NCBI GenBank assembly: GCA_964016885.1
Contig: OZ024746.1
Span: 32,798,001 to 32,862,000, forward strand
Length of the DNA stretch: 64,000 bases
Direction of reading: 5' to 3'
Source: Eledone cirrhosa
Lineage: Eukaryota
In this document: positions 13,662 through 42,121 of the stretch, one piece after another
How the letters are laid out: each line of letters opens with the position of its first letter
Numbering within the stretch: the stretch's first letter is position 1
Made by a program: the position numbers and the translations under genes
Notes under the pieces: model-generated
What the model was told of the DNA's origin: nothing
Database searches by the model: none
What the model saw: only the letters and a program-made list of their open reading frames with translations

Positions 13662-13793
13662 AAATCAGGATAGAACCAGTTTAAAACTAGTTAGACCGTT
13701 AAGTATTCGATACTTGGGTTGGTAGTGTATGGCTATATTAGAAAGAGTCGGTACCCGACGGCTGAGCTCTTGGCGTTTCAACAGCTAGTTGAA
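13662..13793 (-). mobile_element. Short PLE-derived element related to family A
   Basis: Shares GAAAC..GAGCTCAGCCGTCGGG and the 3' stem-loop; 5' end is a mini-hairpin TTCAAC-AGCTA-GTTGAA; (TA)n flanks. Confidence 0.6.
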
Positions 13794-13823
13794 TATATAT
13801 ATATATATATATATATATATATA

Positions 13824-16800
13824 TTATTATTATGTAATAAACAACATAAGGCAATTATTCCATTTACCAGGTTTTGCTTTCAATCCTCAGAATGAAAAAA
13901 TCCTGGTTTGTTTATTGAATTTGGATCTTAAAAAAACAAAAAAAGCAAGCTATATGAAAGTGAGGCTGGAGAAAGAAGAAGGAAAGGAAAAATAAAATAA
14001 GACTACACATACAACCACACATACACGAAAAAACATAAAAGCACACACACACACACACACACACACACACACACACACACACACACACACACACACACAC
14101 ACACACACACATACACGCACACGCATACACACACACGTTATTCCGGGTTGAATCGGAGGCAGCCACAGTAAGCAAGGCACTCAGTACACCGCAGAGCATG
14201 AAAGCTTTAATATAGATGAGAATCTGCATATGTATACACACACACACACACACACGCATGTGTATGCGCGCACGCACGCACGCGTATACAAATATAAATA
14301 TAAATATATTTCCCCCATACACATGTGTGTGCGTGCAAGTGTCTTGTGAATTAGATTATACTTAGAAAATGTCTACAGAATTCCCTAAACCTTCGTCAAT
14401 TTACTAGAACCTTTAAGAATTTAGCTTTTAAGGAATCTCCCCTTCCTCCAAATCTATCTACCATGACTGACCCCATACTGATCTTACAGACACCTGTAAG
14501 CTAAAGAGAAACCTAATGATAAGGATTGGCTCCAATCTGAATACAGAAATCTGTCTGCCTTTGTTCCTCTAAGAACAAACATATACAAACATTCATACAC
14601 ACACACACACACACACACACACACACACACACACACACACACACACACACACACCCACACACACACACACACACACACACACATATCTACACACACACAC
14701 GCATACATATATATATATACACACACACATACACACACACACACATGCATATATACACACACATATACACACACACACACACACACACACATATATACAC
14801 GCATATATATACATACATATATATATATATGCGCGTGCGTACACGCATACACATACGTACACATAGCTATACCCACATATATATATATATATATATATAT
14901 ATACATACATACATTCACACAATCAAACATATATACACACGTACATGCATACACATACATAAATGCACTCCTCTACATATTCACACACGCAAATAAATAT
15001 AGGGAAAAAAATATATATATATATATATATATTATAAAAGCATTGAGACCGTTGCATAAGGCAGCAAACTGGACAGACAAGCGTGGTAAGAAACACACAC
15101 AAAAGCACATATACATACGCACGAAATAGTCAACGCATTCACACACTCTCACACATAAAAAAATTTCAAATACAAATACAAAAACGCATACATACGCATA
15201 CATGCAAAACCACGCACAAGTGTACAATCTATACACACACACACGTGTATACAACTATATGCACACACACACATATATGCATACATATACACACACATAT
15301 ATATACATAAATACAAACGTACACACACACATATATATACACGTACACATACACACACATATACATACATAGCTAAACAATTATACACATACAAATACGA
15401 ATATATCATAAACACGCACAACAGAACACAAACACACACACACACACACACGTATACACACACACACACACACACATATACAATTATCAATATATACACA
15501 CGCACATATGTACACACACACATATACACACATACACATATATATATATATATATATATATATATCTATATATAACGAAGGAAATGTGGTAAGGAACCAG
15601 GTGGACCATAACGCACCAAAGTACTCAATACTTGAGGTAGTAGAGTGGGTAATAGGAACCAGTAAGACCCCGACAGCTGAGCTCAAGCCGTTTCGACGGC
15701 TAATTCTGGACTCTGTATTAGCCGTCGAAACGGCTTGAGCTCAGCTGTCGGGGTCTTACTGGTTCCTATTATATCTATATATATCTATATATATATATAT
15801 ATATATATATATATATATACACACATATGCATGCATATACACATATACACACACACACACACACGTATACACACACACACACACACACACACATATACAA
15901 TTATCAATATATACACACGCACATATGTACACACACACATATACACACACACACACACACACACATATATATATATATATATATATATATATATATATAT
16001 ATATATACACACATATGCATGCATATACACATATACACACATACACACAACCACGCACACACACATGCATACGCATACACACACGGTTGATTTCTCATAT
16101 GAGTGTCAATCCAGTTACAGATCAGGTGCGGTCTCAGATGAGGACAGCATCTGAAGATCTCAGTCTTTGAATTAAGGCAAGCGGAAGTGTCTCTCAAGTT
16201 TAGCAAAATCCTATACTTGTGTGTATATGTGTATATGCATGCATATGTGTGTATATATATATATATATATATATATATATATATATATATATATATATGT
16301 GTGTGTGTGTATATGTGTGTGTGTACATATGTGCGTGTGTATATATTGATAATTGTATATGTGTGTGTGTGTGTATATGTGTGTGTGTGTGTGTGTGTGT
16401 GTATATGTATGCATATATGTGTGTGTGTGCATATAGTTGTATACACGTGTGTGTGTGTATAGATTGTACACTTGTGCGTGGTTTTGCATGTATGCGTATG
16501 TATGCGTTTTTGTATTTGTATTTGAAATTTTTTTATGTGTGAGAGTGTGTGAATGCGTTGACTATTTCGTGCGTATGTATATGTGCTTTTGTGTGTGTTT
16601 CTTACCACGCTTGTCTGTCCAGTTTGCTGCCTTATGTAACGGTCTTAATGTTTTTATAATATATATATATATATATATATTTTTTTTTTCCTATATTTAT
16701 TTGCGTGTGTGAATATGTAGAGGAGTGCATTTATGTATGTGTATGCATGTACGTGTGTATATATGTTTGATTGTGTGAATGTATGTATGTATATATATAT

Positions 16801-17948
16801 ATATATATATATATATATATATATATATATATATATATGTGTGGGTATGGCTATGTGTACGTATGTGTATGCGTGTACGCACGCGCATATATATATATAT
16901 GTATGTATATATATGCGTGTATATATGTGTGTGTGTGTGTGTATATATATGTGTGTGTATATATGCATGTGTGTGTATGTGTGTGTGTGTATGTGTGTGT
17001 GTATATATATATATATGTATGCGTGTGTGTGTGTAGATATGTTTGTGTGTGTGTGTGTGTGTGTGTGTGTGTGTGTGTGTGTGTGTGTGTGTGTGTGTGT
17101 GTGTGTGTGTGTGTGTGTGTGTATGTATGAATGTTTGTATATGTTTGTTCTTAGAGGAACAAAGGCAGACAGATTTCTGTATTCAGATTGGAGCCAATCC
17201 TTATCATTAGGTTTCTCTTTAGCTTACAGGTGTCTGTAAGATCAGTATGGGGTCAGTCATGGTAGATAGATTTGGAGGAAGGGGAGATTCCTTAAAAGCT
17301 AAATTCTTAAAGGTTCTAGTAAATTGATGAAGGTTTAGGGAATTCTGTAGACATTTTCTAAGTATAATCTAATTCACAAGACACTTGCACGCACACACAT
17401 GTGTATGGGGGAAATATATTTATATTTATATTTGTATACGCGTGCGTGCGTGCGCGCATACACATGCGTGTGTGTGTGTGTGTGTGTGTGTGTGTGTGTG
17501 TGTGTGTGTGTGTGTGTGTGTGTGTGTGTGTGTGTATGTGTTTGTATACATATACAGATTCTCATCTATATTAAAACTTTCATGCTCTGCGGTGTACTGA
17601 GTGCCTTGCTTACTGTGGCTGCCTCCGATTCAACCCGGAATAACGTGTGTGTGTATGCGTGTGCGTGTATGTGTGTGTGTGTGTGTGTGTGTGTGTGTGT
17701 GTGTGCTTTTATGTTTTTTCGTGTATGTGTGGTTGTATGTGTAGTCTTATTTTATTTTTCCTTTCCTTCTTCCTTCTCCAGCCTCACTTTCATATAGCTT
17801 GCTTTTTTTGTTTTTTTAAGATCCAAATTCAATAAACAAACCAGGATTTTTTCATTCTGAGGATTGAAAGCAAAACCTTTTGCTTTTAAGAAACCACTGG
17901 TAAATGGAATAATTGCCTTATGTTGTTTATTACATAATAATAATAATT
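13824..17948. repeat. Large inverted duplication, arms ~1.7 kb (13824-~15560 and ~16216-17948)
   Basis: Unique blocks are near-identical reverse complements (e.g. 14330-14590 vs 17130-17395); mirrored ORFs 14484-14960(-) and 16733-17239(+). Confidence 0.95.
15574..15771 (-). mobile_element. Family A PLE-derived short element with fold-back hairpin
   Basis: Perfect 55-bp arms 15650-15704/15717-15771, 12-nt loop. Confidence 0.8.
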
Positions 17949-18099
17949 AAGCTCTGTTGCTTACATAGAGCGCTCTTTTTTCCTGGACTTTTCTGACGGA
18001 ATTACTTCATTTACACACACACACACACACACATATATATATATATATATATATATATATATATATATATATATATATAAAGGAGTAGCGTCCGAAACG

Positions 18100-18420
18100 T
18101 TAAGTAAGAAATTTTAATAGTATTTCTATTAAAAATGTTACTATATTTATATGTGTAGGGGGAAAATGCTTCGTAATAAGGGATAGAAAGATCTTAGCTA
18201 ATGGTGTGGCCACCTCCATATTATATGGTGGGTTATACCAACAAATGCGACGGGATCTATTTCTTCTTGGTCTATTTTCGTACTCTGTATATGCTACCTT
18301 ATCGACAAATCCACTCCGAGCAAGTGCTTCATTGTAATAAGTGGAATGGTCCTTGAAAATATGCTCGTTAGTAGATAGACGGGAAAGCCTCAACGAAACG
18401 TTTCTTACCAGATTCTTGGT
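18100..18420 (-). pseudogene. Penelope-like element RT-thumb/linker fragment, inverted relative to the rest of the element
   Basis: RLSRLSTNEHIF...YNEALARSGF...RRICWYNPPYNMEVATPLAKIFLSLITKHFPPTH. Confidence 0.8.
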
Positions 18421-40880: not shown

Positions 40881-41050
40881 TGTATCACCTATCCCTCCTT
40901 TTTTTCTCTCTCTCGATACGTAAATACTGTATATATATATATATATATATATATATATATATATATATATATATATATATATATATATATATATATATAT
41001 ATATATATATATATATATATATATATATATATATATATATATATATATAT

Positions 41051-41262
41051 GAAAAAGGATGACTCCGACGACAGAGCTCAAGCCGTTTCGACGGCTATTT
41101 CTGGACTAAAAACGTTTTAGTCCAGAGTCCAGAAATAGCCGTCGAAACGGCTTGAGCTCTGCCGTCGGGGTCATACTTTTTCCTATTACTCTACTACCCT
41201 AAGTATTGAGTACTCCGGTGCGTTATGGTCCATCTCGTTCCTTACCACAATTCCTACGTTTT
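41051..41262 (+). mobile_element. Family A element with fold-back
   Basis: ...GTTTCGACGGCTATTTCTGGACTAAAAACGTTTTAGTCCAGAGTCCAGAAATAGCCGTCGAAAC... Confidence 0.85.
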
Positions 41263-41456
41263 ATATATATATATATATATATATATATATATATATATAT
41301 ATATATATATATATATATATATATATATATATATATATATATATATATATATATATATATATATATATATATATATATATATATATATATATATATATAT
41401 ATATATATATATATATAGGCATTAGTATTGGTGCTCTGAAATAGCGATGTATATAC

Positions 41457-41720
41457 GAATGTATATATAGTATATTTGATAATAATCTGTATGTTTAATT
41501 AAAACCCTTTTGAAGAACATTCGCTATGAATTTTAAAGTAGTGACTATGTCACTTACTTATTTTCGGCAAAAACAAAGAGGTTGGGGAGTAATTCCTTTG
41601 TTTTTGTCTAGAACAAGTAAGTGACATATTCACTACTTTAAAATTCATAGCCAATGGTTTTCAAAATGTTTTAAGTTAAACATACACCATATTATCAAAT
41701 ATACTATACATACATTCACA
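41457..41720. mobile_element. MITE-like palindromic element (family of 5608-5897)
   Basis: ~120-bp imperfect inverted arms. Confidence 0.7.
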
Positions 41721-41742
41721 TATATATACATATATATATAGA

Positions 41743-42121
41743 ATAGAAAACGAAAAATCAGTGATGCATCTGAACTCAATTTATTGTGTGTTACAATTGT
41801 TTCCCCGGCGGACAGGTCGAGACGCGATCATTGTGTGGATCTGTCTGATTCTGGACCCGCAGGTTCGACGGACATGTCTAATGAGAGAATATGCTCCGAA
41901 ATCATTAGACGTGGCCGTCGAACATGCGGGTCCAGAATCAGACAGATCCACACAATGATCGCGTCTCAAGCTGTCTGCCGGGGAAACAATTGTAACACAC
42001 AATAAATTGGGTTCAGATGCATCACTGATTTTTCGTTTTCTATGCTATCATACTCTGCTCTGTAAGAGCATAGAGTGCTCAACCGGCATACCGCCTATGG
42101 AAGCATCTTAGCTACCATCAG
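41743..42121 (+). mobile_element. PLE-derived element with 142-bp-arm palindrome centred on an HHR-like motif
   Basis: Arms 41743-41884/41902-42043; centre GTCTAATGA-GAG-AATATG-CTC-C-GAAA-TCATTAGAC; 3' stem-loop GAGCAT-AGA-GTGCTC. Confidence 0.8.

Follow-up and report, generated by a model that had tools for sequence, protein, structure and literature searches.

Scattered through a 64,000-nucleotide (nt) stretch of the 3.0-Gb genome of Eledone cirrhosa (GenBank assembly GCA_964016885.1, contig OZ024746.1, positions 32,798,001–32,862,000 of the forward strand; hereafter the window) are short palindromic repeats, five of which, here called family A, are copies of one sequence that belongs to a Penelope-like element (PLE). 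A preliminary description had placed these five at 15574, 23708, 30141, 38387 and 41051, all inverted at one hairpin, and had proposed a non-autonomous Penelope system whose complementary DNA (cDNA) folds back at a hammerhead ribozyme. The five copies do lie at these positions, each flanked by (AT)n tracts and composed of two arms joined head-to-head (Table 1; arm coordinates take the G of GAAAC as 0). The hairpin, with both GACGGCTA and TAGCCGTC, is shared by only four of them: copy 23708 is without it, its long arm ending at +38 and its short arm beginning at -15. In copy 38387 the long arm carries a deletion after the hairpin. A repeat search of the window was dominated by microsatellites.

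Fixed ends and variable centres

At the outer limits of the arms are two fixed ends, a short end at +43 and a long end at about +123, both flanked by (AT)n tracts, in line with the (AT)n targeting proposed earlier. The long end of family A has at least 31,731 matches in the genome and its reversed control has 0, which excludes chance. An unbiased set was formed from the first 90 of 100 places among these matches, corresponding to 88 insertions after two second ends (L079 and L111) were dropped. A local inverted arm accompanies 63 of the 88, and in 57 of the 63 its outer end is at +43 (..TTCCTAT, then an AT repeat). The earlier statement that the copied arm differs in extent from copy to copy therefore holds for the inner ends of the arms, but not for this outer end.

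Two-armed family A insertions with one long and one short end number 3,183 genome-wide, against 41 long–long and 32 short–short, so that about 98% carry one end of each kind. The long–long search pattern spans three subfamilies and the other two patterns one, so this figure is if anything low. The same layout is found in 119 of the 122 copies of a pooled set, which was drawn from four samples (the unbiased set, the 30 best BLAST loci, 40 A1–A1 loci and 15 A4–A4 loci) and limited to two-armed copies in which both cores are intact, and in all 10 two-armed insertions of family C, which were read by eye.

The pooled copies contain 107 distinct centre strings, the commonest seen four times, from which it follows that the palindrome is built at insertion, as first suggested, with no fixed consensus palindrome. 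The arms join by microhomology in 63 copies, bluntly in 17 and through inserts in 42, many of these inserts being templated from the arms or consisting of A/T runs. All but one of the 244 arm ends in this set stop within 25 nt of GAAAC (243/244), and the single longer arm match (29 nt) looks like chance. Inner ends in the unbiased set (n = 151) are clustered and not uniform, again as anticipated, with 97 at -25 to -10, 8 past -100, 1 at -79 and the others downstream. Long A/T-run junctions at five loci (L001, L013, L017, L021 and L080) are consistent with slippage by reverse transcriptase (RT) or with untemplated addition at the RNA 5' end.

In raw Illumina data from two other samples, (AT)n directly follows both fixed ends in thousands of reads, and some opposite-strand joints are seen. 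The libraries are of the restriction-site-associated DNA (RAD) type; in each run about 7,000 molecules terminate at an AATT immediately within the arm, probably a restriction cut, and the data therefore test the depth step and the palindrome centre only weakly. Contigs of a second organism that match L209:3600–4150, within the parent locus described below, contain the family with the same two fixed ends, then (AT)n.

The parent element and its predicted hammerhead

Family A palindromes are fragments of the 5' untranslated region (UTR) of an autonomous Hydra-clade Penelope element in the same genome. Locus L209 comprises an inverted arm of 830 nt, a tandem copy in truncated form, an intact open reading frame (ORF) of 719 aa and a 3' UTR ending at the short end. 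This single ORF, of less than 3 kb, encodes RT followed by a C-terminal GIY-YIG domain, assigned by motifs: RLRWR at 35, DKT at 117, YRDD at 348, CNCPDRSIC (CxCx5C) at 572, YIG at 606, CNLC (CxxC) at 670 and CKH (CxH) at 698. Pfam gave no match in this ORF or in a GIY-YIG piece of the window. With the ATG about 90 nt past the long end, the 5' UTR contains both fixed ends (+43 and about +123); the parent inserts into (TA)n.

Judged by its motifs, the parent is assigned to the Hydra clade of C-terminal endonuclease-bearing (EN+) PLEs as defined by Craig et al. 2021 (PMC8557442). Common to both are a single ORF of less than 3 kb, RW[KR] and DKT motifs, the latter in place of DKG, a CxCx5C linker, CxxC and CxH around conserved E and N residues, (TA)n targets, a hammerhead in the pseudo-long terminal repeat (pLTR) and a partial tandem with an inverted truncated copy. 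Setting the present element apart from that account are a U3·A8 ribozyme core (C3·A8 in some copies), a long stem II, a tail of about 80 nt compared with 30–40, and tens of thousands of UTR-only doublets.

The Penelope origin given in the preliminary description thus stands, whereas the non-autonomous system does not, given an intact autonomous parent and junctions that are hardly ever inherited. Family A copies that continue upstream share one native sequence, the core motif of which has 6,823 matches, frequently in pairs that face outward with a spacing of 0.1 to 5.4 kb. Short copies bear the same subfamily letters as long copies and are therefore read as by-products, not as a self-copying family. 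A non-autonomous PLE or retrozyme family was rejected in view of the diversity of centres, the absence of the ribozyme 5' half from short copies, and variants that match those of the long copies. The parent of family C is of the same type, with 52% identity to that of family A; no family D parent ORF was found within 1.5 kb of 30 loci. Family B, a relative of family A (72% over -10 to +76), had one match in the genome search.

The native parent sequence folds as a predicted type I hammerhead, which agrees with the ribozyme initially ascribed to the system. In the minimum-free-energy fold, stems I, II and III surround a core with a GTC (NUH) cleavage triplet, the parts being stem I (ACCCC/GGGGT), the core TTGANAA (position 7 free), a long stem II, GAAAC, stem III and GTC. 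Over 11 close copies the hammerhead pairing is present in 90.7% of cells, compared with 20–43% for slid controls; its fold energy is no better than that of shuffles (z +0.41 and -0.64), and two-sided changes are seen in 0 of 25 helix pairs. The canonical CUGANGA core is not present: that of the parent is TTGANAA or CTGANAA, of U3·A8 type (the motif with 6,823 matches). A U3–A8 hammerhead variant has been described for the Cercyon PLEs of Schistosoma (PMC4209133). CTGANGA, expected just 5' of the hairpin, has 37 matches; at the 30 loci inspected its source is the junction or a neighbouring family and in no case the parent. Among the Rfam matches listed for the window (150 of 250) there was no hammerhead family, only microRNA-type matches below gathering scores. 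In L071, L143, L195 and one arm of L022, C3 stands opposite A8 in the core, a mismatch that may disable the ribozyme.

Arm reach, the inner limit and a possible two-ended insertion

Reach towards the centre is unbiased between the arms. Among the 119 long–short copies of the pooled set the long arm extends further in 44, the short arm in 43 and the two equally in 32; for the 46 copies with identical arms the corresponding figures are 19, 16 and 11. The arms do not overlap in 7 of 62 unbiased copies. Longer insertions were examined at 23 loci, chosen as outward-facing pairs or long copies: of those without an internal tail, 7 have the longer arm at the short end (by up to about 2.5 kb) and 8 at the long end; of the rest, 5 are unresolved, L209 has an internal copy, and L158 and L201 are too complex to score. 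The two arms of one copy share subfamily letters and differ at 1.4 of 41 sites compared with 4.0 of 41 between copies (44 copies). Arm pairs with matched subfamilies number 3,288 and 1,354, against 7 mixed pairs, one of which is two adjacent insertions.

Bounding the arms of family A on the inner side is a hard limit at about -18 to -25, at TTAGTC or TCAGTC, which we take to be initiator-like. In some subfamilies TATTTAAA, presumably a TATA-like motif, is located 29 nt upstream of the A in TTAGTC, with weaker motifs in others. For family C (30 loci), truncated ends number 18, and 12 of them fall between -6 and +8 relative to an A located 30 nt downstream of TATAAATA, which we again take to be a TATA box, and 6 nt upstream of CTGATGA; the arms meet upstream of the ribozyme core, with no hairpin loop involved. 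For family D, 17 of 26 ends are at -7 to +11 of CCAGTG, with a presumed CCAAT box upstream and no canonical core. The limit thus varies in position among families relative to the ribozyme and appears constant relative to promoter-like motifs. It is probably the transcription start of the normal mRNA, at which the cDNAs would run off the template. The family A limit, which differs from the ribozyme cleavage site at +22, would in that case happen to coincide with the stem II loop. In the Penelope element of Drosophila virilis, a promoter inside the pLTR has been shown (PMC2377424).

Several observations weigh against a transcription start as the limit. The start was read from motifs picked after the ends had been seen, and subfamilies A1 and A4 have a poor TATA-like motif. 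Preceding A(-18) is a T in 3,223, a G in 682, a C in 512 and an A in 180, with no clear cap-G signature, and many family A arms extend 1 to 6 nt beyond A(-18). Moreover, the limit coincides with the stem II apical loop, so that structure could contribute.

We favour, with some confidence, a two-ended integration in which both target strands prime and the cDNAs run off the RNA 5' end and are end-joined head-to-head. A pair of proteins would cut both strands of an (AT)n tract, and of the two ends of the break one would prime reverse transcription at +43 and its partner at about +123, probably using the same RNA held by the dimer, with one active site of the pair starting at each internal site. 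Either target strand could take either start site, but not both the same. On ordinary mRNA the two cDNAs would reach about 60 and 140 nt before running off the 5' end. The centre would then be closed by end-joining of the host, with use of microhomology and templated inserts, and the short palindromes so formed would be dead-end by-products. Kilobase-long versions would arise from read-through RNAs, in which the start sites lie downstream of a whole ORF. That there are two primings per insertion is the likely part of this scheme; whether both use one RNA is evenly balanced. The chances are also about even that PLEs integrate by an obligatory two-ended reaction of this kind, with one dimer, one RNA, a cDNA from each side of the break and two fixed sites. 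Consistent with such a scheme, the PAc Penelope protein cuts and extends both strands from two internal sites and is a predicted dimer (PMC11167929).

Other results tell against two-ended integration or sit uneasily with it. The in vitro data of PMC11167929 show no start-site difference between the two strands. Matched arms fit one RNA, but may only reflect subfamilies active at different times, and singleton variants common to both arms number 5, against 107 on one arm. No local second arm is present in 25 of the 88 unbiased insertions, some of which are long copies, and small fold-back inserts occur at junctions (window 13775, L045 and L054).

Family A arms are also found head-to-head with arms of other hammerhead-bearing families (L031, L046, L051, L039, L054 and L045), in some cases with a short fold-back ahead of the joint. 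These chimeras and L056 were not taken to prove the use of two RNAs: they were selected by the search pattern, and deletion of the target can account for them.

Rather than two cDNAs, a single one primed at the long site might snap back by microhomology at the RNA 5' end and copy itself, the target capturing it at the TAT of +43 and later deletions of the centre scrambling which arm is longer. This account, which we regard as unlikely, accommodates the matched arms and the long–short rule; the most frequent junction is compatible with a stem of 5 bp and a loop of 6 nt, small fold-back inserts are present, and self-priming has been proposed for such junctions (PMC3846280). However, because the short arm has no tail, fold-back can start from the long arm only, and a short arm that reaches further than the long one is not expected; yet there are 43 such copies among 119, and 16 among the 46 with identical arms. 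The short arm reaches further in about half of the copies with unequal arms, and some arms have no overlap, which leaves the self-priming of one cDNA put forward in the preliminary description unsupported. Kilobase deletions would be needed in young copies such as L196 (arms 99.5% alike), and the short end also terminates full-length and solo copies (L209 and L043). One-cDNA fold-back fails to give both the end rule and the unbiased reach unless half of the copies were later deleted. A fold-back specifically at hammerhead stem II, the ribozyme fixing the inversion point, is very improbable and already largely refuted. It would suit the type I fold of the parent and a family A limit at the stem II apical loop, but the window hairpin consists of two copies of the stem II 3' strand and is not stem II itself. 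Snap-back at the native stem would keep the loop, and the native loop with the 5' strand is kept in at most 1 of 244 arms, which leaves snap-back unsupported. Further, family C breaks upstream of the core, family D is without a canonical core, the inversion points of long copies are scattered, up to 2.8 kb away, and Naiad elements without canonical hammerheads show the same inverted copies (PMC8557442).

Two-ended priming could alternatively operate with a limit set by an RNA cut or RT stop near stem II, or with two sibling RNAs, variants to which we give little credence. The frequent overshoot of A(-18) by a few bases and the lack of a clear cap signature speak for a cut or stop, and arm concordance would be the same for one RNA or for two siblings from one locus. 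Against a cut or stop, the presumed TATA box of family C lies exactly 30 nt before the limit, where there is no hairpin loop, and the limit is not at the +22 cleavage site. The doublets, being short, high-copy, TA-flanked and palindromic, also resemble a miniature inverted-repeat transposable element (MITE) whose internal palindrome is fixed, or an artefact of fold-back in the reads. This is already refuted, and in our estimate barely credible, given 107 distinct centres among 122 copies, continuity with a retroelement ORF, and the (AT)n next to both fixed ends in the raw reads of the two other samples and in contigs from the second organism. Unequal ends, the variable centre and the continuity with the RT ORF likewise led us to reject a MITE as the class of the element.

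Related elements and other features of the window

Inverted pLTRs, junction palindromes and a tail at one end are already known, as is this kind of element. Penelopes of Adineta vaga (PMC3846280) and D. virilis (PMC2377424) are alike in their head-to-head repeats, one-end tail, junction palindromes and promoter inside the pLTR. These papers deal with few copies and put forward self-priming on an antisense template, whereas here there are thousands of copies, a strict one-tail rule and no longer-arm bias. Biochemical parts of the scheme above are known from PAc, a Poseidon element of Anolis characterized in vitro (Frangieh et al. 2024, PMC11167929), in which two internal RT starts define the tail, the target is AT-rich, both strands are cut and extended, a dimer is predicted and the hammerhead is dispensable for insertion. 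Its start sites lie in the ORF, unlike those here, which are in the 5' UTR; inverted copies are not dealt with in the main text, where the two strands are reported not to differ in start site. The Cercyon PLEs (PMC4209133) share the U3–A8 core covariation, and opposite-strand hammerhead pairs 100–700 bp apart were noted there; different here are a stable stem III of 5–6 bp and the retention, in most copies, of the ribozyme 3' half only. Endonuclease resolution has been offered for inverted pLTRs, and the mechanism of tandem and inverted structures is called open (PMC8557442). Neither the end-pairing rule nor a two-ended PLE model was found in a literature search outside subscription papers, and the term 'twin priming' was absent from the PLE-focused papers searched.

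In twin priming of L1, reportedly described by Ostertag and Kazazian in 2001, both target strands are said to prime on one RNA and to yield an inverted 5' part, with arms that do not overlap and a second primer that anneals at variable places. Here, in contrast, neither start varies in place, the arms overlap, and the event is regular rather than accidental.

The 98% one-long-one-short rule over thousands of insertions, together with the lack of longer-arm bias, is a sharp constraint on the PLE mechanism. A two-ended step, if true, would explain inverted pLTRs, a tail on a single end and the need for tandem templates, and ordinary mRNA would then mostly give dead palindromic UTR doublets, tens of thousands across the genome. 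Penelope doublets are a large source of palindromes, and annotation could mistake them for MITEs or microRNA hairpins.

Table 1 Arms of families A–D in the window
Feature	Position	Strand	Arm coordinates	Remarks
Family A long arm	15574..15712	-	about -17 to +122	Outer end at (AT)n
Family A short arm	15717..15768	+	-9 to +42	Terminates ..TTCCTAT; inter-arm gap of 4 letters
Family A long arm	23708..23791	-	truncated at +38	Hairpin missing
Family A short arm	23793..23850	+	-15 to +42	
Family A short arm	30141..30203	-	-20 to +42	
Family A long arm	30205..30345	+		Predicted hammerhead stem II 3' strand, GAAAC, stem III, GTC cleavage triplet, stem I 3' strand, tail of ~80 nt
Family A short arm	38387..38441	-	about -12 to +42	
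Family A long arm	38444..38551	+		Internal deletion, about 0 to +27
Family A short arm	41048..41110	-	-20 to +42	Older copy
Family A long arm	41126..41260	+		Junction with A/T run and templated AGTCCAG duplication
Family B arm	13662..13793	-		Single arm; 6-nt inverted insert at inner end
Family C long arm	22691..22830	-		Second Hydra-type element
Family C short arm	22854..22904	+		CTGATGA..GAAAC; templated duplications between arms
Family D short arm	41741..41884	-		Inner end = CTAATGA on + strand
Family D long arm	41882..42121	+		Begins ~2 nt into native CCAGTG motif

The features first reported for the other families fared unevenly. The mirror at 22773–22904 and its CTGATGA..GAAAC motif (family C) are real. 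At 41743–42043 (family D) the palindrome is present, but CTAATGA (41878) is no native core and represents the inverted arm in reverse complement. The mini-hairpin at 13775–13793 (family B) is likewise present, in a copy without a second full arm.

Spanning 13834–17933 is an inverted duplication of about 4 kb, rich in microsatellites and centred near 16100–16200, the unique parts of which are 97.5–99.7% alike; family A copy 15574 is in its left arm only, and the duplication may be real or a feature of the assembly. At 18098–20140 is another Hydra-type fragment, with an inverted piece, a GIY-YIG end that shares about 50% identity with the parent of family A, a long 3' UTR and a hammerhead-like CAGAAGA..GAAAG near 20024. 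Palindromic repeats of other families, possibly formed in a similar manner, lie at 4881–5195, 38680–39643, 39766–40767, 41447–41727 and 44611–44882. Families with canonical minimal hammerheads (CTGATGA..GAAA), with no local second arm seen, are found at 21529–21560, 22141–22364 and 30696–30921. Unrelated to the palindromes is a long interspersed nuclear element (LINE) fragment with a zf-RVT domain at 31202–32580.

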